Of a stretch of 20,000 nucleotides of DNA, positions 4,826-19,818 are shown one piece after another; the stretch's first letter is position 1; the number at the start of each line of letters is the position of its first letter. Both the position numbers and the translations under genes were made by a program. A model generated the notes under the pieces. It was not told the DNA's origin. It saw only the letters and a list, made by a program, of their open reading frames with translations, and searched no databases. The DNA is from an uncultured virus (IMG/VR IMGVR_UViG_3300042338_000192) (Duplodnaviria > Heunggongvirae > Uroviricota > Caudoviricetes): positions 46,325 to 66,324 of the IMG/VR virus record IMGVR_UViG_3300042338_000192. One strand, given 5' to 3'.

Positions 4826-5494
4826 ATGGCGAAAAAATCTAGACGTACTGAAGAAAACGTTGTAGAACCCACTACTGAAAAGGACTTACAGCTTTTAACA
4901 GATGCACAGAAAAGATATTTAAATTCCATCAAATCAAATATAATAACATTTGGTGTTGGGGTTGCTGGTACAGGTAAATCATATGTAGCATTATCATATG
5001 CTGCTCAATTACTACAGAACAAACGAATATCAAAGATCATTGTTACAAGGCCTGCGGTAGAAGCCGGTGAATCATTTGGATACTTACCAGGAGAGCTTGA
5101 GGAAAAATATGCTCCCTACATTGATCCAATAAAAGATATATTAAACAAAAGATTAGGTCATTCATTTACAGATTACTTATTTAAACGTAAAGTAATTGAA
5201 GCAAGACCATTGGCATTTATCAGAGGAAGTACATTTGAAAATACATTCGTATTATTAGATGAAGCTCAAAATTGTACTCCTGCTCAAATGAAAATGTTCT
5301 TAACTAGAATTGGTGAGAATACTAAAGTAGTTATTGATGGTGATATACAACAGAAAGATATTAAAGGTAATTCAGGATTAGCTGATGCTATTACTAGATT
5401 ACATGGTATTAATAAAGTTGGTATAGTTACTTTTGATGTTGATGATATTGTACGTAGTGGTATCTGTAAAGAAATTGTGAAAGCCTATTTGTAA
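4826..5494 (+). CDS. phoH: PhoH-family ATPase
   Basis: GVAGTGKS Walker A, TRPAVEAGESFGYLPG, PLAFIRGSTF, LLDEAQN, MFLTRIGEN, GDIQQKD, DIVRSG. Confidence 0.95.
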   Translation: MAKKSRRTEENVVEPTTEKDLQLLTDAQKRYLNSIKSNIITFGVGVAGTGKSYVALSYAAQLLQNKRISKIIVTRPAVEAGESFGYLPGELEEKYAPYIDPIKDILNKRLGHSFTDYLFKRKVIEARPLAFIRGSTFENTFVLLDEAQNCTPAQMKMFLTRIGENTKVVIDGDIQQKDIKGNSGLADAITRLHGINKVGIVTFDVDDIVRSGICKEIVKAYL

Positions 5495-8145: not shown

Positions 8146-10365
8146 ATGAGAATACAACTATTGAAGTCATTAAAAAGAAGGATGCAATTAGAAATAGCTC
8201 CTCAAAGTCCGCTAAAATTTCTAAAAGAAATTGACTTAGAAAGCGTATTAGATGTAATAATATCTAACGTATACTTATACACTCGTCCAAAGAGAGGTGC
8301 TGTAAACAAACAAATATTAATGGTAGAAGTCATTAGCATTATTGGGCATTCAGTAAGACGAGGTTTAAAGAAAGATTCATCTGTTGCGGCTAAGACTGGT
8401 GCATTCATACTATACTCATTTGAAGAGCTTGGAATGCTTAGAGCAGTACTAGGTTCTGCTGGTAATGGTCATGCAACATATATTGTAGAAGTCTTAGATG
8501 ATGCGACAATACAATTACTATGGGAAAGTGTAAGCAGAGAAGGTGCCAAGGGTAAATTACCTTCAGTAACACCATATGAATCTTATACAGAATTCAAACA
8601 CCCTACTGGACAAGTATTAGTCAAGACGGGTAATAAAGATGTTCCAACAAAATTAACACCTGCAACACATCCTATAGTATTTGATTCAGTAAATAAGAGC
8701 TTAAATACGGGTTGGCAAATAAACAAAGAAGTTTATAATGTTTCTAAATGGGCATTGAATAACCATACTGATGCATTTAGTGATATATGGGAGCAGCAAA
8801 ATCCTCAAGCTAAGACTACTAAATTAAGGGAAACAAAAGCTATTCTATCTATAGCAGATAAGTTCATGGATACTGTATTTTACCATATGTATTACCTTGA
8901 TTTCCGTGGAAGGAAATATCCAACAACGGCATATCTCCATGAACAATCTAGTGATATTGCTAAAGGTCTTTTAATGCGTCAAGATAAGAAAGTAATTGGT
9001 GAAGAGGGTTTCTTTTGGCTATGTGTATCTATCGCCAGTAACTGGGCAGGTTCATCAGGACGTGAAGATGGTGCAAAGACGGATAAGATCAATCTCAAAG
9101 ACCGATATCAGTGGGTATTAGACAATCAAGAGATTTTATTATCATATGCAGAAAGTCCAAAAGTAAATCAAGGATGGATGTCAGGAGATAAGCCATGGCA
9201 ATTCTTAAGTGCATGTATTGAATTAAGAAATGCTTTAAAATTGGGACCAAGATATTTAGAGTATGAGTCACATGTTGAATGTTTTATTGACGGATCAACG
9301 AACGGCTCACAACATTTATCTGCATTAACAAGAGATGAAATAACAGCTCCATATGTTAATTTAATTCCATTAGAACTTCCAGGTGATTTATATGCATATG
9401 TTGCCGAACATGTATGGAATAAAATATCTAATGACATAGCAAGAATGCCAGCGGATTTAATCTTTCAATGTGAAGATTTTATAGATGGCTTAATTAAATT
9501 AAAGAAAAAGATTACTGCATCCGAACCTAAGTCTGAAATTAGGAATCAACTAGTAGCTCAAATTAAAGCCTATAAACAACAATGGGCTGATATTGGCTCT
9601 GTTGCAGCACCTGTATTTTGGAATCGTATAAAGGATTTGAAACAAAGAAGGAAGATAGTTAAAAGAAACACTATGACTCTTCCTTATGGAGGTAGCAGCT
9701 ATGGATTGGGAGAGCAACAAATCCTTGATGCAAAAAAGCATGGAATAGACTTGCTACTTCATATGGAGCATAAATGGGGAGCTTGGCTGGGCAGATTAGT
9801 ATTTGAAGATTGTAAAGCTTCATTAGAGAAGCCAATGAGGCTGTTAAATATATTTGAGAATGCCGGAAGAAACTGTGAGAAAATTGAAGAATTTTTATCA
9901 TGGAATGTTCCAATAGTAAACTTTCCTGTGGTACAAAATTATACAGAAGGTAAAGTTAAAAAGATTTATGTACAGTATGGGCCACCAGTTGGGTCACGTA
10001 AATCTACAGGTTATTATGAAAACACTTTTCAATTAGCAATATGTTTTATTGAAGATGTGGTTCCTAGTAAAGGTAAGCAGTCTCAAGGAGCAGCACCTAA
10101 CGTTATTCATAGTTTAGATGCAGCACACTTAGCACTTACTACACACCGTTGTGATTTTACAATTACAACAATTCATGACAGCTATGGTTGTTTATTTGCT
10201 GACATGCCAAATCTCTTTAGAATAGTTCGCGAGACATTTGTAGAACTTTATAAAGATAATCCATTGTTTCCAATAATGGATGATATTGACGGAGATCTTA
10301 CTTATCTTGAGATGGGTGATCTTGATATTAATTTAATTCTAGAAAGCGAATACGCTTTCGCATAG
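8146..10365 (+). CDS. T7/T3-family single-subunit DNA-dependent RNA polymerase (short N-terminal domain)
   Basis: DFRGRKY (T7 DWRGRVY), DGSTNGSQH (motif A, D537), RRKIVKRNTMTLPYG (motif B, K631/Y639), APNVIHSLDAAH, IHDSYG (motif C, D812), C-terminal SEYAFA (T7 SDFAFA). Confidence 0.97.
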   Translation: MRIQLLKSLKRRMQLEIAPQSPLKFLKEIDLESVLDVIISNVYLYTRPKRGAVNKQILMVEVISIIGHSVRRGLKKDSSVAAKTGAFILYSFEELGMLRAVLGSAGNGHATYIVEVLDDATIQLLWESVSREGAKGKLPSVTPYESYTEFKHPTGQVLVKTGNKDVPTKLTPATHPIVFDSVNKSLNTGWQINKEVYNVSKWALNNHTDAFSDIWEQQNPQAKTTKLRETKAILSIADKFMDTVFYHMYYLDFRGRKYPTTAYLHEQSSDIAKGLLMRQDKKVIGEEGFFWLCVSIASNWAGSSGREDGAKTDKINLKDRYQWVLDNQEILLSYAESPKVNQGWMSGDKPWQFLSACIELRNALKLGPRYLEYESHVECFIDGSTNGSQHLSALTRDEITAPYVNLIPLELPGDLYAYVAEHVWNKISNDIARMPADLIFQCEDFIDGLIKLKKKITASEPKSEIRNQLVAQIKAYKQQWADIGSVAAPVFWNRIKDLKQRRKIVKRNTMTLPYGGSSYGLGEQQILDAKKHGIDLLLHMEHKWGAWLGRLVFEDCKASLEKPMRLLNIFENAGRNCEKIEEFLSWNVPIVNFPVVQNYTEGKVKKIYVQYGPPVGSRKSTGYYENTFQLAICFIEDVVPSKGKQSQGAAPNVIHSLDAAHLALTTHRCDFTITTIHDSYGCLFADMPNLFRIVRETFVELYKDNPLFPIMDDIDGDLTYLEMGDLDINLILESEYAFA

Positions 10366-13434: not shown

Positions 13435-13475
13435 GGGTCTCTATAAATGCTTAGAGACCCCGTTAAATTAACCCT
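13435..13475 (+). promoter_or_regulatory. 9-bp hairpin plus motif B upstream of the replication module
   Basis: GGGTCTCTA-TAAATGCT-TAGAGACCC (13435-13460) overlapping CCCGTTAAATTAACCCT (13459-13475). Confidence 0.6.
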
Positions 13476-13503
13476 AATTCAGAAATCAAAAGAGAGAACA
13501 GCA

Positions 13504-13995
13504 ATGGCAAAGTTATATGACGTAGAAATTTATTTCGCTAAACTTGGTAAACCAAACGGCAAGTTTAATAAAGAAAATCCTACATGGGAACTCCAAATTC
13601 GGACTACCGACAAAGAGAAAAAGAAAGAATGGGAAGCTATTGGATTGACTGTCAAGGCTATCGTTCCAGATGATGGTGATACATATTTCAGAGCTAATCT
13701 GAAAAAGAAGTCTATTAAATCAGACGGTACACCAAATGAACCTGTGAAATTGATTGATGGTAAATTAAGACCTATTGATCCCAACACGATTGGAAATGGA
13801 TCCATCGGTAATATTCGTGTATTTGAATACGAATATAAAGATCCAATGGGGGTTACAAAGAAAGGCTTTACCCTTATGACAGTACAATTAACAAAGCATA
13901 TAGTATATACTCCACGTATCAGCGAAGATGATTTCGGTGAGACAGAATATGAACGTGAATTCAGCAGTAATGAAACTGACGATGACGTATTCTAA
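13504..13995 (+). CDS. T7 gp2.5-like single-stranded DNA-binding protein
   Basis: IGNGSIGNI motif, acidic tail ending in Phe (ETDDDVF), position before the DNA polymerase; ATG13504 preferred over 13447, which lies inside the hairpin. Confidence 0.75.
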   Translation: MAKLYDVEIYFAKLGKPNGKFNKENPTWELQIRTTDKEKKKEWEAIGLTVKAIVPDDGDTYFRANLKKKSIKSDGTPNEPVKLIDGKLRPIDPNTIGNGSIGNIRVFEYEYKDPMGVTKKGFTLMTVQLTKHIVYTPRISEDDFGETEYEREFSSNETDDDVF

Positions 13996-13999
13996 ATAT

Positions 14000-14704
14000 A
14001 TGATAAATTATACATACAAAATACTTAATAAAGATCACCAATTTGTAGCTTTTATTAGAGAATGTGAATTAGATAGTATGATTTCTAATTTTAAAGACGG
14101 ATATTTTATAAAAGCAGAAACAAATAATATGCCGCTTCAAAGAATTTCTTTTATTAGAAATGTTGATGAACTTGATGCGTGGTATGAACAAATAGATCGA
14201 AGACATTGGAAAAAGAAAGAGCGTACAATTTCATTTTTATATGATCTTCAAATAGTATATAAAGCAACTATTAATGAATATTTAAATGAGAATATTCGTG
14301 ATGTTACTGAGTATAATTTAAACAATGACCATTTAACCGCAGTAATTACAGAAAGTAATGGAAACGAAATTGTATTCCATGACGAAGAAGCTTTAGATAA
14401 TTATCTAATGAATTATCGTAAAAAAACTCAAGAAGTAAATAATGCAGTAGACCCTAAGCATTATAAGGGATATGTAGATGAATTACAATGGTTAGACACA
14501 ATGAGTAGAATACCTACACTGCGTGATCCAGTGAAATTCGAAGCAGCAGTTGAATTACAAATAAGAAAATACCTTGACCGTAATGGTCAAAAGGATGATT
14601 CTCTACAAGAACTCCAAAAAGCTTTATGGTACTTAAAGTACCTAATCGCCTATAAAAAGGCCGGCAGACCGATAAAGGTTGGAGAAGTAGAAAGCATCCT
14701 ATAA
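14000..14704 (+). CDS. Protein with C-terminal DUF3310 (T7 gp1.7-like nucleotide kinase) domain
   Basis: NAVDPKHY...KYLDRNGQKDDSLQELQKALWYL; ATG14000 follows the SSB stop. Confidence 0.7.
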   Translation: MINYTYKILNKDHQFVAFIRECELDSMISNFKDGYFIKAETNNMPLQRISFIRNVDELDAWYEQIDRRHWKKKERTISFLYDLQIVYKATINEYLNENIRDVTEYNLNNDHLTAVITESNGNEIVFHDEEALDNYLMNYRKKTQEVNNAVDPKHYKGYVDELQWLDTMSRIPTLRDPVKFEAAVELQIRKYLDRNGQKDDSLQELQKALWYLKYLIAYKKAGRPIKVGEVESIL

Positions 14705-14711
14705 CAAAATC

Positions 14712-14744
14712 GGCACCTCACTAATACTGGGGTGCCTTTTATTT
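14712..14744 (+). terminator. Terminator-like hairpin immediately upstream of the DNA polymerase
   Basis: GGCACCTCA-CTAATAC-TGGGGTGCC, then TTTTATTT. Confidence 0.75.
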
Positions 14745-14755
14745 GGAAATTATAT

Positions 14756-16624
14756 ATGAATTATGTATTCGACATTGAAACCGATGGACTATTAAAAGAC
14801 GTAACACAAATGTGGATCATGGTTGTTCATGATGTAAGTGCTAATAAGCGAATGCAATTTTTGCAAGGAGATATGAATTGGATACAACTATTCAATAATG
14901 CTAGACAAGTTATGGGCCATAATATTATTGGATATGACTTAGCTGTATTAAAGAAGCTATTCAACTATGAATTACCTAAGAGCGTAAAAGCTGTAGATAC
15001 ACTTATTCTTTCACAAGTATTAGACTATAGGAGGTTCGGTAATGATGGGCATGGTTTAAAACGTTGGGGTGAATATTTAGAGTTTCCTAAACAAGAGTTT
15101 GAAGACTGGTCTGGATATTCTGAACAAATGGGTGAATACTGTAATAACGACGTTTCATTAAATGTCAAGGTATTAGAGATATTAAAGCAGGAATTGATTG
15201 AAGTGTCTGAAAAGAATCCTAAAGTCAAAGAGTATATTAAAGTAGAACATGCAGTAAGTAAGTGGTGTGCCGAAGCTAACTTAGGTGGATGGCCATTTAA
15301 TTTAGATAAAGCACATATACTTTATGACAGATTACAAGTTGAAATGGATAAGACGTATACTGCACTAAATTCAAAACTTGGCTTAAAGATAGTCGCTGTA
15401 GATAAGAAACTTGGTATTGTAGAAGTAAAGAGACCTAAATATAGAAAGGATGGATGTTATGATGCGCATACTGCTCGGTGGTTTGATGTGGATCCTTGGA
15501 GTGGGTTCGATCCTGATGATCGCATTGTCGATGGTGAGTATTGCCGTATTCAAGTCGAACCTCTTAGTCTGGACTCGGTAACAGATGTAAAGATATTTCT
15601 ATATAGACATGGTTGGGTTCCTAATGATTGGAATTATAAAGCTGATCCTATTACAGGAAGAAAAGCGAAAACTACACCTAAGATTACAGAAGATAGTTTA
15701 GAATTCTTAGGTGGTGATGGTAAGCTCTATAAAGATTTCTTAACTGCAAAGGCTAGGCAAGGCATTTTAACAACATGGTTAAAGAACGTAGATGCTCAAG
15801 GCAATCTGCACGGTGATTGTATGACAATCGGTACACCAAGTATGCGTGCTAGACACTCTATTATTGTTAACGTACCGTCAGGAGATTCACCATGGGGTAG
15901 AGAAATGCGGGAATTGTTCTCATGTAAGCCTGGCTGGAAGCTTGTAGGCTGTGATTCATCAGGTAATCAAGCTAGAGGCTTAGCACATTATTTGAATAAT
16001 GCTACATTTATTGATACATTACTTAATGGTGATATCCATCAATTTAATGCTGATATTCTTACTGAGATCTTAAAGAAAGATTTAAAGATGAATTATGTAG
16101 TACCAAGAGCGAATGCCAAAAGAATTCTATACGCATTCTTATTCGGAGCCAGTGGTGGAAAGCTTTGGTCATATATCTTTGGCTCGCATGATGATGTTAA
16201 AGGTAAGAAATTGAAATCAGGCTTTATTAAAGCTGTTCCAGGGTTTAAAGACTTAAGTGAAAAGTTGGAGAAAATATATGGAAACACAAAGAAAAAGGGA
16301 GATGGTTATATACCTAGCTTGGCTGGTACTCGTGTGTATGTTGACAGTTTCCATAAGCTTCTTGTCTATCTACTGCAATCGGCAGAGAAAATTACTTGCG
16401 GAGCAGCATGTATGCTTGCAATGGAGCGACTCGAATCTGCAGGAATTCCGTACCAACCCTTAATTATGATGCATGATGAAATTGACTTTATGGTGCCTGA
16501 AGAGTTTGCTGAACAAGCAGCAGAAATAGGTAAACAAGCTTTTGCAGACGGCCCAAAACTATTCGGTGTTGAGATTATGGATGGTAGCGGAAAAATTGGC
16601 AATGACTGGTATGAGATTCACTAA
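14756..16624 (+). CDS. Family A (T7 gp5-like) DNA polymerase with 3'-5' exonuclease
   Basis: ExoI FDIETD, ExoII GHNIIGYD, ExoIII YCNNDV; motif A GCDSSGNQAR, motif B RANAKRILYAFLFG, motif C MHDE. The track start GTG14732 lies inside the terminator, so ATG14756 is preferred. Confidence 0.95.
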   Translation: MNYVFDIETDGLLKDVTQMWIMVVHDVSANKRMQFLQGDMNWIQLFNNARQVMGHNIIGYDLAVLKKLFNYELPKSVKAVDTLILSQVLDYRRFGNDGHGLKRWGEYLEFPKQEFEDWSGYSEQMGEYCNNDVSLNVKVLEILKQELIEVSEKNPKVKEYIKVEHAVSKWCAEANLGGWPFNLDKAHILYDRLQVEMDKTYTALNSKLGLKIVAVDKKLGIVEVKRPKYRKDGCYDAHTARWFDVDPWSGFDPDDRIVDGEYCRIQVEPLSLDSVTDVKIFLYRHGWVPNDWNYKADPITGRKAKTTPKITEDSLEFLGGDGKLYKDFLTAKARQGILTTWLKNVDAQGNLHGDCMTIGTPSMRARHSIIVNVPSGDSPWGREMRELFSCKPGWKLVGCDSSGNQARGLAHYLNNATFIDTLLNGDIHQFNADILTEILKKDLKMNYVVPRANAKRILYAFLFGASGGKLWSYIFGSHDDVKGKKLKSGFIKAVPGFKDLSEKLEKIYGNTKKKGDGYIPSLAGTRVYVDSFHKLLVYLLQSAEKITCGAACMLAMERLESAGIPYQPLIMMHDEIDFMVPEEFAEQAAEIGKQAFADGPKLFGVEIMDGSGKIGNDWYEIH

Positions 16625-16929
16625 TGAATAAAGAACAATATCTACTTGTATGTTTAATGGAAGAACTCTCAGAAGCCGCACAGGAAGCGTCTAAATGTTT
16701 AAGATTCACACTTGATCATAAATATGAATTGTATGAAAAGACTAACAAAGAAAAGCTTAAATCAGAGCTATCTGATGTACAAGCTATTTTAATACTTCTT
16801 TCATCAGAGTGTAATATTAGATTGAATTGCGAAAGAGTGCCTGATATCAGAGATAAGATTGATCGCACATTGCTAAGAATGAAATTGTCTCAGGAAATGG
16901 GAGTTTTAGATGCTGATAGCACTGATTGA
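16624..16929 (+). CDS. MazG-like NTP pyrophosphohydrolase
   Basis: LMEELSEAAQ...KSELSDV (EExxE...ExxD) all-alpha NTP-PPase motif. Confidence 0.7.
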   Translation: MNKEQYLLVCLMEELSEAAQEASKCLRFTLDHKYELYEKTNKEKLKSELSDVQAILILLSSECNIRLNCERVPDIRDKIDRTLLRMKLSQEMGVLDADSTD

Positions 16930-17701
16930 TGGCGATATACTTGCCCACAACTGCTGTTACAACCGTACTGATGGTGTCACATATCTTGATGATGAGGGTA
17001 ACGTAATACCTCAAGTATTCACTAAAGAAGAAGATACAGAGTATCGTAAAGCAATATGGCGTAACTTTGAAAGTATGTTAGAAGTGATTATGGAGGAGAC
17101 ATTTGCAAGTGATTACTGTATGGCTGTTAAGGGTGAAGGCAACTATAGAGACGAAATATTTGTAGACTATAAGAAGCATCGTACAGCTGGTCCACCTAAT
17201 CTTTTTGTACCATTTGTAAGAAAGCTAGCAGTAATGCACGAGATCGCTATAGCTGCAGATGGACGCGAAGCTGATGATTTATTACGTATATGGGCAAATG
17301 AATGTAGGTCTCATAATATAGATTATGTTATATGCTCAATAGATAAGGATCTATTAATGATCCCTGGAAAGCACTATAATATAAAGCATAAAACAATTAC
17401 AGAAGTCTCAGAGCTTGATGCTAAAAGAAACTTCTACGAACAAGTATTAAAAGGCGATGCCACGGATAATATACCTGGCATTTGGAAAATGGGGCCAGTG
17501 AAAGCATCAAAAGCTTTAGCACATTGCACAACAGATGAGGAATTCCAAGAGGCAGTAATTGAACAATATATAAAAGCTAATGGTGATGAATGGCCTGAAT
17601 ATCTATTAGCTAATGCAAAGCTTATCAACATACAGAATACATATGATGATTATTTCTGTTTTGATAACTGGCCATTAGCACAGGAAATTAGAGATGGCTG
17701 A
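16910..17701 (+). CDS. 5'-3' exonuclease (T7 gp6/FEN-like)
   Basis: LIDGDI, YKKHR, EADD, SIDKDL, GDATDNIPGI motifs. Confidence 0.9.
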   Translation: MLIALIDGDILAHNCCYNRTDGVTYLDDEGNVIPQVFTKEEDTEYRKAIWRNFESMLEVIMEETFASDYCMAVKGEGNYRDEIFVDYKKHRTAGPPNLFVPFVRKLAVMHEIAIAADGREADDLLRIWANECRSHNIDYVICSIDKDLLMIPGKHYNIKHKTITEVSELDAKRNFYEQVLKGDATDNIPGIWKMGPVKASKALAHCTTDEEFQEAVIEQYIKANGDEWPEYLLANAKLINIQNTYDDYFCFDNWPLAQEIRDG

Positions 17702-18209
17702 ATTTAAAGGTAAAATAAACCACACCGTGTCCAATTCAGATATTAGTAAATTTGATAATGGACACTGGTGTTTTAATAGACAGATGAACGTAGGAAATAA
17801 ACAATATGTGGGATTCATCTACATTATATATGATACGGTCTTGGATAGATTCTATCTTGGCAAGAAGAATTACAGATCATATGGTAAAGCTACTTATGGA
17901 CAAGAATCTGATTGGCGTAGATATAAATCTAGCTCTAACAGTTTGGCGGCTCATTTCGCTAGCAGACCGAAGAAAGAGTTCAAGTTTATTGTCCTTGATG
18001 AATACACTACCAAAGGCTCCTTAGCTTGGGCAGAGACATGGTCATTATGCCATGTTGAAACCCCAGTAACACTCAAGTGGTATAATAAACAAATCGAGAA
18101 GGTATCATGGGATGTCAAAGAAAATGTATCACACGATCACAGAGTACGATTAACTATGATCACTAAAATGTCACCAGAATGTTTAATTCAATGGCCAAAA
18201 GATGGGTAA
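17694..18209 (+). CDS. GIY-YIG-family endonuclease
   Basis: GFIYIIYDTVLDRFYLGKK...WRRYKSSS...AE pattern. Confidence 0.7.
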   Translation: MAEFKGKINHTVSNSDISKFDNGHWCFNRQMNVGNKQYVGFIYIIYDTVLDRFYLGKKNYRSYGKATYGQESDWRRYKSSSNSLAAHFASRPKKEFKFIVLDEYTTKGSLAWAETWSLCHVETPVTLKWYNKQIEKVSWDVKENVSHDHRVRLTMITKMSPECLIQWPKDG

Positions 18210-19818
18210 AATAGTAATTCACAATCAACCATGTCCAAATCCAGATTGCGGTTCTTCAGATGCACTTCAGATCTATGAGAACGGCACAGCTACATGCTTT
18301 AGCTGTCAAACTTGGTTTCCCGCTAACAAAAATAAGGAGTTCACTCACGTGGAAAAACCTAAGAAACCTTTTGTACTAGATGTAGAAAAACTAAGAACTG
18401 CTGGCTTTAAAGATAGAAAGATATCTAAGGAAGTAGCGGAATTCTTTGATGTTAAATCAGCATTTAATGAAGATGGCGAAGTAGATACACACTATTATCC
18501 TTACGGTGAAGGTATTTATAAAGTTAGAAAGCTACCTAAGATGTTTTCATGTATAGGTAAACCAACAACTTTATTCGGTATGGATAAGTTTGGCACAGGT
18601 GGTAAGAGGTTGATTGTAACTGAGGGTGAATTAGATGCAATGGCAGTAGCACAAGCATCATTAGATAAGTATGGAAAAATTTATCCTGTAGTCTCAATTC
18701 CCTCAGCATCTAATGTTAAGACACTCTTAGCGCATAGAGATTGGGTAAGGTCATTTGACACAGTAGTATTATGCCTTGATACTGATGAAGCTGGTGAAAA
18801 AGCTAAAGCAGAAGCTATTAAATATATAGGTGCTGATAAAGTAAGATTAGCTAAATTGCCTGTTAAAGATCCAAGTCAAATGTTACTTGAGAAAGGCGGC
18901 CAACAATTATTAATTGCTATTTGGGAAGCGTCTAAATACACGCCTGTAGGTATCTTAGGTAGAGATGAATTATGGGAAGCTTTAAAAGCTTACAATGATA
19001 CTGAATCTGTACCATATCCCATGTGTTTAGATGCATTAAATACTAAGACTAAAGGTATGCGTGAAAATGAGATTGTACTATTTACTTCTGGTACAGGCTC
19101 AGGTAAGTCAACTATTCTCAGAGAAATTGTGTGGCATATTATAGATACTACCCCTGCAATGGTAGGTATTGTATCATTAGAAGAATCACCTGCTGAGACT
19201 ACACGTAAACTCTCGGGTATTCCGTTGAATGTCAATCCTTCATATAGAGAATTAACAGAAAGTGAATTAGAATCAGGCTTTAGAGCAGTGTTTGGTGATG
19301 ATAGAATTATGGTATTAGACCATCAAGGTTCTATGGAAGATTCAACTCTGTTTGAAAAGCTAGAGTATATGGCATTATCAGGTTGTAAATATCTATTCAT
19401 CGATCACATTACAATCCTGGTTTCAGAAGGTGTAGATGGACTAACAGGTAATGAAGCCATAGATAAAACTATGAATGATTTACTTAGATTATGTAAAAGA
19501 TATCCCGTATGGATTGGCTTAGTGTCACATTTAAGGAAGACACCTACAGGCAAGACATCATTTGAAGAAGGTCAATTACCATCTTTAGATGATATTAAGG
19601 GTTCAGGCTCAATTAAACAAATTTCAAATGATATCATAGCATTCGCACGTGACATGTCACATGATGATGATAGAATAAGAAATCATATTAAGATGAGAGT
19701 ACTGAAAAGCAGATTCACAGGTCTAACAGGAAACGTACCAGGTGTTGATTATGACTATCCAACAGGTAGGTTATCAGCTTCAATACTATTACACCCAGAT
19801 GATTTTATGGAGATTTAA
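18202..19818 (+). CDS. T7 gp4-like primase-helicase
   Basis: Zn finger CPNPDC...CFSC, TOPRIM TEGELD and DTDEAG, Walker A SGTGSGKST, FIDHI, VSHLRK, GSGSIKQ, KSRFTG. Confidence 0.95.
   Translation: MGKIVIHNQPCPNPDCGSSDALQIYENGTATCFSCQTWFPANKNKEFTHVEKPKKPFVLDVEKLRTAGFKDRKISKEVAEFFDVKSAFNEDGEVDTHYYPYGEGIYKVRKLPKMFSCIGKPTTLFGMDKFGTGGKRLIVTEGELDAMAVAQASLDKYGKIYPVVSIPSASNVKTLLAHRDWVRSFDTVVLCLDTDEAGEKAKAEAIKYIGADKVRLAKLPVKDPSQMLLEKGGQQLLIAIWEASKYTPVGILGRDELWEALKAYNDTESVPYPMCLDALNTKTKGMRENEIVLFTSGTGSGKSTILREIVWHIIDTTPAMVGIVSLEESPAETTRKLSGIPLNVNPSYRELTESELESGFRAVFGDDRIMVLDHQGSMEDSTLFEKLEYMALSGCKYLFIDHITILVSEGVDGLTGNEAIDKTMNDLLRLCKRYPVWIGLVSHLRKTPTGKTSFEEGQLPSLDDIKGSGSIKQISNDIIAFARDMSHDDDRIRNHIKMRVLKSRFTGLTGNVPGVDYDYPTGRLSASILLHPDDFMEI

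Follow-up and report, generated by a model that had tools for sequence, protein, structure and literature searches.

A glutamine gate coupled to a helix Q glutamate in T7-like family A DNA polymerases of phages

The DNA polymerase (PolA) encoded in a 20,000-nucleotide stretch of DNA from an uncultured tailed phage (positions 46,325 to 66,324 of the IMG/VR record IMGVR_UViG_3300042338_000192; hereafter, the window) carries a Gln at the position of the motif A steric gate, Glu710 of Klenow (T7 E480), and the obligate partner of this Gln is a Glu on helix Q, at the position of Klenow A852 and T7 G618, rather than the Phe that replaces Tyr766 (T7 Y530) on the O-helix. Glu710 and Tyr766 are textbook fidelity and sugar-selection residues of the Pol I-type enzymes, among them Klenow, Taq, T7 and Pol gamma. 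Judged by its sequence, the window enzyme belongs to a widespread set of T7-like family A polymerases, here called Gln-type as opposed to Glu-type, and we consider it likely to be a working, proofreading replicase in which helix Q has taken over the pocket carboxylate from motif A. This reading is carried by observed residue equivalences, by a strict three-way co-variation, by its repeated independent occurrence and by purifying selection.

The gene and the motifs on which the argument turns are the following (coordinates within the window; Klenow equivalents unless marked T7; close homologues are defined below). Residue numbers are counted from GTG 14732; the true start is probably ATG 14756 (622 amino acids [aa]) rather than GTG 14732, because the homologues are 621-622 aa long.

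14732..16624, + strand: gene for a family A (T7-like) DNA polymerase with an N-terminal 3'-5' exonuclease domain, 630 codons from GTG 14732
14771..14779, + strand: Exo I motif D14-I-E16, intact, codons checked; D14 and E16 near-invariant in alignment A1
15839..15847, + strand: equivalent of the TGR motif, S370-M371-R372; R372 = T7 R429 = R668, invariant
15953..15976, + strand: motif A, DSSGNQAR, aa 408-415; D408 = catalytic D705, N412 = I709, Q413 = E710/T7 E480
15968..15970, + strand: codon CAA, Q413, the steric-gate position; Gln in 121/121 close homologues
16106..16147, + strand: motif B (O-helix), RANAKRILYAFLFG, aa 459-472; R459 = R754, K463 = K758, Y467 = F762/T7 Y526, F471 = Y766/T7 Y530
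16142..16144, + strand: codon TTC, F471, the Y766 position; Phe in 121/121 close homologues
16352..16390, + strand: helix Q (motif 6), HKLLVYLLQSAEK; H541 = R841, V545 = N845/T7 N611, Q549 = Q849/T7 Q615
16364..16366, + strand: codon GTC, V545, in place of the Asn of N845; Val in 121/121 close homologues
16385..16387, + strand: codon GAG, E552 = A852/T7 G618; co-varies perfectly with the Gln gate
16472..16480, + strand: motif C, H581-D582-E583 (H881, D882, E883), intact; invariant in alignment A1

The identity of the gene is supported by several profiles: PF00476 of Pfam matches aa 309-627 with 58.1 bits (cut-off 34.3), PHROG 17 (phage DNA polymerase) matches with an E-value of 2.4e-96, and the exonuclease N-terminus is matched both by RNase_H_2 of Pfam and by PHROG 403 (exonuclease subunit). 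T7 gp5 chains are the top matches in the PDB (E 7e-25). The family A catalytic carboxylates are present as D408 (D705), D582 (D882) and E583 (E883), together with H581 (H881), while R754 and K758 of the O-helix, R668 of the TGR loop and Q849 of helix Q are kept as R459, K463, R372 and Q549. The DEDD exonuclease set is also intact (D14, E16, N64, D69, Y136 and D140, in an Exo I of the form DxE, an Exo II of the form Nx(2-3)(F/Y)D and an Exo III of the form Yx3D), all of its residues being invariant or near-invariant, with D69 and D140 invariant in alignment A1. The enzyme departs from the 'invariants' of family A only at E710, Y766 and N845, and the missing Glu710 and Tyr766 do not count against its membership of the family. 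Within family A, the T7-like cluster #5 has been described as having Tyr at motif B position B3 and a thioredoxin-binding loop that is not universal (Czernecki et al. 2023); the window PolA has T7 gp5 as its closest match among solved structures and Tyr at B3, and it is on these two features that we place it in cluster #5.

The residue equivalences were obtained in three ways. A HMMER alignment to the T7 gp5 chains of the PDB sets Q413 on E480, Y467 on Y526 and F471 on Y530; a MAFFT alignment including the T7 gp5 coding sequence gives the same equivalences; and an alignment to E. coli polA (NC_000913.3) equates D408/N412/Q413/R459/K463/Y467/F471 with D705/I709/E710/R754/K758/F762/Y766. A preliminary description of this DNA had read motif A as DSSGNQAR with CAA at 15968-70, had placed the TTC codon at 16142-44, and had interpreted the residues as E710Q, Y766F and a Tyr at 762; the translation, the codons and all three alignments bear it out. 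Among the outcomes that would speak against it, the same description had named a shift of register that would bring back Glu and Tyr. No such shift was found, and it is ruled out by the agreement of the three independent alignments.

The substitutions are fixed among close relatives. In a set formed by the query together with the 120 homologues that match it best (60-99% identity, n=121), N412, Q413, Y467, F471, V545 and E552 are present in every sequence, so that Q710 and F766, whose co-occurrence the preliminary description had proposed to examine among homologues, are found together in 121/121. (One PolA, 66% identical to the query, is labelled Flavobacterium sp. by its source.) At the DNA level, 34 related IMG/VR loci were considered, of which two are fragments that do not contain the region; the 32 readable ones represent 18 distinct DNA versions. 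In all 18, positions 709/710/766/845/852 read N/Q/F/V/E, and their codons vary by synonymous changes, with CAA or CAG for Q413, TTC or TTT for F471 and GAG or GAA for E552. This pattern points to purifying selection on the Gln-type residues and to a selected, working enzyme: being fixed in 121/121 sequences with synonymous codon variation, the substitutions are attributable neither to chance nor to decay. That they might nevertheless come from an alignment artefact, or from a decaying or inactive copy of the polymerase, could be argued from the loss of two residues that have been called universally conserved and from Pfam and NCBIfam scores that are only modest. Against this, the three alignments agree, every catalytic residue is present, the fixation just described holds throughout the relatives, and the gene lies within a complete replication module in a record where a search with the window PolA returned a single match, with no second PolA copy seen. 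We regard artefact or decay as extremely improbable.

The distribution of the Gln gate was examined with a HMMER scan of 1.84 billion representative sequences, from which the 150 best hits were taken; 124 sequences, including the query, were full length with aligned anchor residues. Among these, the residues at 710/766 were Q/F in 58, E/Y in 52, Q/L in nine, Q/Y in four and E/F in one. The Q/F combination occurs in Vibrio phage 1.208.B and Klebsiella phage Klyazma (Zobellviridae) and Q/L in roseophage SIO1 (Zobellviridae), whereas DSS3_PM1 (Naomviridae) has Q710 with F762 and Y766; the E/Y combination is that of T7, a Przondovirus, cyanophage S-CBP3, pelagiphage HTVC104P and a Mesorhizobium phage. 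Hence, the Q710/F766 pair is not private to the phage of the window.

When the alignment columns were ranked by their power to separate Gln-type from Glu-type sequences, one column tracked position 710 perfectly, that of E552 of the window enzyme (T7 G618, E. coli A852), which lies three residues past the invariant Gln of helix Q (T7 Q615, Klenow Q849). In a wider set, in which 329 of 345 sequences had aligned anchors, the triplets at 710/766/852 were QFE (249), QLE (10), QYE (9), EYG (48), EYA (9), EYD (2), EYS (1) and EFG (1); that is, Gln710 was accompanied by Glu852 in 268/268 sequences and Glu710 by G, A, D or S in 61/61. A further 114 sequences, gathered around the metagenomic sequence P0255, gave QFE (17), EYG (95), EYD (1) and EFG (1), and 17 of 18 additional IMG/VR loci could be read, all of them E/Y with G (16) or S (1) at 852. 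Pooled, Glu852 is found in 285/285 sequences with Gln710 and in 0/175 with Glu710, and no intermediate state was seen among the 460 sequences. The link to position 766 is looser: Tyr766 is lost in 276/285 Gln-type sequences and kept in 173/175 of the Glu-type, the remaining two having Phe766 alongside Glu710. Thus, the obligate partner of Gln710 is Glu at A852/G618 rather than Phe766.

Other positions follow the Gln class less strictly. I709 becomes N or C (N412 in the window enzyme), T7 R604 becomes D, E or P (D538), and the middle residue of the TGR loop is bulky (M371, standing where the Glu-type enzymes carry a small residue). The N845 site is Asn in 53/53 Glu-type representatives, whereas the Gln-type representatives have N (42), V (21), C (9) or S (6), as if the constraint on this site were relaxed once the gate is Gln.

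The coupled change appears to have arisen more than once. A FastTree phylogeny of 124 rows built on all columns requires at least five changes at 710 and at least nine at 766; with the columns of motifs A, B and 6 dropped (132 rows), at least eight changes are required at 710, eight at 852 and 12 at 766. Counting only supported branches, the motif-free tree offers five independent contrasts (eight if every branch is counted), and the five are all concordant for both 852 and 766. For a likelihood analysis (IQ-TREE, LG+G4, quick), 70 of the 132 rows were used (15 chosen and 17 random Gln-type sequences and 38 Glu-type sequences), again without the motif columns: the supported branches force at least five changes, and an approximately unbiased (AU) test rejects a single Gln-type clade (difference in log-likelihood 264, p 1.2e-11). 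Sequences of the two types are found as supported sisters, P0254 (QFE) with P0224 (EYG) and P0255 (QFE) with P0269 (EYG), with values of 98 and 96, respectively, in the Shimodaira–Hasegawa-like approximate likelihood ratio test (SH-aLRT), and the SIO1-like QLE group is nested in a Glu-type clade with HTVC104P. All trees are unrooted and do not tell the direction of each change; the sites switch together either way. On these phylogenies the coupled Q710/E852 switch is forced to have arisen repeatedly, at least five times. The preliminary description had proposed to test whether Q710 and F766 co-occur and define a clade; the co-occurrence holds, and the single clade is rejected by the AU test.

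The isolated Gln-type lineages were also considered as possible products of recombination. Around the motifs, their nearest neighbours are their own Glu-type sisters, which rules out an imported segment as their origin. The closest database relatives of P0255 (45% and 43% identity) are E/Y/G; single-protein queries of IMG/VR returned no close relatives of P0254 or P0255, and the query with P0270 returned only Glu-type sequences, at 31-36% identity. P0254, P0255 and P0270 each differ at three separate codons.

We propose that these residues form a rewired pocket. In the closed complex, a hydrogen bond joins E710 to Y766, and the two give the nascent base-pair pocket its shape; Klenow E710Q is a mutator that shows weak binding of the correct dNTP, poor closing and slow incorporation, and Klenow Y766F is close to wild type (PMC3715850). 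In the Gln-type enzymes, an isosteric but uncharged Gln stands in place of the Glu of motif A, and a Glu is present on helix Q, three residues past the invariant minor-groove Gln (A852E in Klenow, G618E in T7). At the Tyr of the O-helix, the normal hydrogen-bond partner of E710, the hydroxyl is lost in most cases (Y766F or Y766L), and the clade of the window phage has three further fixed changes, I709N, N845V and a TGR loop with a bulky residue. The negative charge of the pocket would thereby be retained, now coming from helix Q and directed probably to R372 (R668) and/or to the amide of Q413; the steric block against the 2'-OH would also be retained, because Gln is shaped like Glu. On this proposal E710Q alone would be harmful and would require the Glu of helix Q, consistent with the slow and error-prone Klenow E710Q, and Y766F, being near-neutral, would follow the loss of its hydrogen-bond partner, with Tyr766 drifting to Phe or Leu.

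The geometry that this calls for has a counterpart in apo Pol gamma, where the Arg that corresponds to R668/T7 R429 is in contact with the Glu that corresponds to E710, and an adjacent Arg of the loop pairs with an Asp five residues past the helix Q Gln (PMC3241644). These contacts would make neighbours of helix Q, the TGR loop and the Glu of motif A, so that a Glu at Q849+3 could supply the lost carboxylate. The rewiring fits the distribution described above: Gln710 never occurs without Glu852, Phe766 can occur alone (in the two Glu-type sequences and in the DpoZ polymerases), and none of the 460 sequences is intermediate.

Several points weigh against this reading or limit its force. The 285 and 175 sequences include many close relatives and are not independent counts; a sign test on the five concordant contrasts (5/5) gives only p = 0.0625; and P0254, P0255 and P0270 are single metagenomic sequences, singletons by cluster look-up. 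Moreover, 9/285 Gln-type sequences keep Tyr766, so its loss is not obligatory, and Asp is found at 852 in three Glu710 sequences, so an acid at this position is tolerated with Glu710. Finally, the proposed contact of E552 with R372 or Q413 derives from co-variation and from the description of another enzyme. The preliminary description had taken the double change to be compensatory rather than degenerate, and the co-variation over several independent lineages, with catalytic and exonuclease residues intact, favours that view; the pairing that it emphasised, Q710 with F766, is incomplete and proves to be the weaker half of the coupling.

If charge relocation is the preferred reading, a different one would have the Gln gate relax the selection of sugar or base, yielding a lower-fidelity or ribonucleotide-tolerant replicase that leans on its proofreading domain. 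A hydrophilic residue at I709 (Taq I614) lowers fidelity and sugar discrimination, and N845 is linked to fidelity; the window enzyme has N412 and a Val at these respective positions and its exonuclease motifs are intact, all of which would suit such a replicase, as would the mutator phenotype of Klenow E710Q (PMC3715850). We nevertheless hold it to be unlikely: Gln is isosteric with Glu, so the clash with the 2'-OH should persist, the perfectly coupled Glu of helix Q indicates compensation and not loss, and the arrangement is stably kept in the replicases of genomes of about 40-80 kb over very divergent lineages.

Alternatively, the pocket could be adapted to non-canonical nucleotides, such as deoxyuridine (dU) in place of thymidine (dT), 2-aminoadenine or another modification of base or sugar, and the Gln-type residues would then mark phages with modified DNA. 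Every changed residue lies on the sugar/minor-groove side of the pocket, a MazG-like pyrophosphohydrolase gene is found directly downstream of polA and a nucleotide kinase gene upstream, and the closest cultured relatives of the window phage are the Naomviridae DSS3_VP1 and DSS3_PM1 (35% identity for the RNA polymerase, 35.5% for PolA and 47% for the primase-helicase), whose PolA is Gln-type (Q710, E852). In the DNA of these phages dT is replaced by dU (PMC8323127), and Phe at Y766 is reported as the sole substitution common to both clades of DpoZ, the 2-aminoadenine polymerases (PMC8599892, PMC10201439). Other points weigh against the idea. The kinase is of the T7 gp1.7 type (DUF3310), which is ordinary in T7-like phages; what distinguishes dU from dT lies in the major groove, remote from the changed residues; and DpoZ is Glu-type, the passages of the DpoZ papers that concern its residues describing no departure in motif A. 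Gln-type enzymes also occur in SIO1, Vibrio phage 1.208.B and Klebsiella phage Klyazma. To our knowledge no DNA modification has been reported for these three phages, which we count against the link to modified DNA.

Gene content is likewise unfavourable to it. The window record and a complete relative of 78.7 kb, described below, were searched for PF00383 (deaminase), PF01966 (HD), PF00709 (the PurZ family) and ThyX, and no match was found in either, while positive controls worked; no gene of the dCMP/dCTP-deaminase, HD hydrolase, ThyX or PurZ type was thus found in these genomes, and the 13 kb that the complete relative has in addition hold ribonucleotide reductase, ligase and HNH genes and unknowns. 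The suggestion of the preliminary description that the change might serve the acceptance of modified nucleotides is not borne out by this gene content, and we rate an adaptation to non-canonical nucleotides as quite improbable. Two specific systems were considered and set aside. The dU-DNA pathway of the Naomviridae was rejected on the unmatched deaminase and HD phosphatase families, although small open reading frames (ORFs) without a family match leave a non-homologous route; the DpoZ/Z-genome system (PurZ, the HD protein DatZ and MazZ) was rejected on the unmatched PF00709 and PF01966, only the MazG-like gene being present. A broader form of the idea is that Gln-type PolA is a distinct catalytic architecture which alters the acceptance of ribo-, 2'-/3'-modified or minor-groove-modified nucleotides. 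We consider this rather unlikely, but if it were true, Q710/E852/non-Tyr766 would be the mark of phages able to replicate with unusual nucleotide pools or to resist them, of which the dU-DNA Naomviridae would be the first example known.

In the literature, E710 and Y766 have been called universally conserved (PMC3715850, PMC4882331). Czernecki et al. (2023) describe Phe at the Y766 position of motif B as unique to DpoZ and, in the passages on the T7-like cluster, note just the Tyr at B3; on the gate, a 2026 preprint about mutants of T7 Y526 says only that Glu480 is conserved. A term look-up found neither '710' nor '766' in Nasko 2018 or Keown 2022, and in the main texts of the open-access papers and preprints searched we came upon neither a natural Gln gate nor a helix Q Glu described for T7-like PolAs. 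With 285 natural Gln-type sequences, the published invariance of E710/Y766 is not universal: a large natural set of replicases does without both residues, and Gln-type PolA looks like a working alternative design, not a defect. The set would provide a natural example, evolved by convergence, of active-site epistasis and of a relocated charge in a polymerase, and a direct explanation for the crippled single Klenow mutant E710Q. It also yields a three-residue recipe for which T7 gp5, Klenow or Taq could serve as test enzymes, and it may offer polymerase engineering a new scaffold. Surveys in which viral PolA sequences are filtered or classified by 'invariant' residues call for caution in the light of it.

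The window is the final 20 kb of its 66,324-bp record (G000). A relative with an identical PolA (G001) is 78,740 bp long, has direct terminal repeats and is rated complete. Judged by its genes, the window comes from an uncultured phage of 66-79 kb with a T7-like replication module, the members of which, besides polA, are found in the window in this order, with the gene for the small subunit of ribonucleotide reductase (RNR) beginning at the window end:

8146-10365: single-subunit RNA polymerase
13447-13995: gp2.5-like single-stranded DNA-binding protein (SSB)
13928-14704: gp1.7-like nucleotide kinase with DUF3310
16624-16929: MazG-like NTP pyrophosphohydrolase (PHROG 4856, E 1.4e-12; no match in Pfam or NCBIfam)
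16910-17701: 5'-3' exonuclease
17694-18209: SegE-like GIY-YIG homing endonuclease, between the 5'-3' exonuclease and the primase-helicase (PF19835, E 2.1e-15)
18202-19818: primase-helicase

The MazG-like gene begins with the final base of the polA stop codon, an overlap that points to translational coupling. A gene for a 925-aa tail-fibre protein (29-2806), whose C-terminal 200-300 residues match families of the distal subunit of T4-type long tail fibres, and a PhoH-like gene (4826-5494) both precede the early and replication genes on their upstream side. No close cultured phage was found at the DNA level in the phage collection searched, where the best protein match of PolA has 35.5% identity; the primase-helicase matches that of roseophage CRP-7 at 52.5%. 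Between the RNR start and the terminase gene, the complete relative has about 13 kb that the window record does not contain (L014 15270-21890 and L048 13265-19901), with genes for the small and large RNR subunits, an ATP-dependent ligase and two HNH endonucleases and with more than ten ORFs that have no family match in Pfam, PHROGs or NCBIfam. The window record is cut at this place rather than lacking these genes, because it ends inside the RNR gene. Outside the window, the record holds a single ORF of about 5,900 codons (G000:C1 about 24907-42594; L011 6907 to L012 6594) in a genome of about 66-79 kb. Also outside the window (G000:C1) are a heme oxygenase gene (L010 10318-10854; PF01126, E 2.8e-16) and, adjoining it, a gene for a ferredoxin-dependent bilin reductase (L010 10894-11685; PF05996, E 1.9e-22); pigment-pathway pairs like this one are known from cyanophages and uncultured marine phages.

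Among known systems, T7 gp5 is the natural point of reference. The window PolA shares with it the order of exonuclease and polymerase domains, the Tyr at the position that discriminates against dideoxynucleotides (Y526, Y467 here) and the catalytic residues, and the gene neighbourhoods are also alike, with a single-subunit RNA polymerase, a gp2.5-like SSB, a gp1.7-like kinase, a primase-helicase and an exonuclease. The two enzymes are, however, only about 24-25% identical, differ in length (630 aa versus 704 aa for the T7 gp5 chain) and differ in the pocket, where T7 E480, Y530, G618, N611, L479 and R604 correspond to Q413, F471, E552, V545, N412 and D538.

The closest PolA of a cultured phage is that of DSS3_PM1/DSS3_VP1, with 35.5% identity over 98% of the protein; it has both Q710 and E852 and in our trees is nested in the same large Gln-type clade as the window PolA. 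It differs in having F762 and keeping Y766 (DSAACQLR / ..FIFAFLYG), the reverse of the window enzyme, and in its genome, which in the Naomviridae encodes a dU pathway with a deaminase and an HD phosphatase (PMC12697855), neither family being found in the window genome or its relative. Read from DSS3_PM1 and the representatives P0148, P0153, P0161 and P0163, the Naomviridae branch is set apart by F762/Y766 from its Gln-type neighbours, which have Y762/F766; in the sisters P0161 and P0163, residues 762 and 766 are both Phe. The Zobellviridae SIO1, Vibrio phage 1.208.B and Klyazma share the Gln gate and the helix Q Glu with the window enzyme, and the latter two also Phe766; SIO1 and its relatives differ in having Leu766, and identity to the window enzyme is about 30%. 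The position of SIO1 beside HTVC104P (E/Y/G) in a Glu-type clade indicates a separate switch.

The DpoZ polymerases (phiVC8-like and Wayne-like) resemble the window enzyme in the Phe at Y766, which has been described as unique to them among PolA clusters (PMC8599892, PMC10201439), and differ in their Glu gate, in belonging to other PolA clusters and in the associated PurZ/DatZ/MazZ gene cluster. Lastly, the Klenow mutants E710Q and Y766F carry the same single substitutions at the same positions as the window enzyme; they were made singly, in a Glu-type background without the Glu of helix Q, whereas the natural enzymes add this third change.

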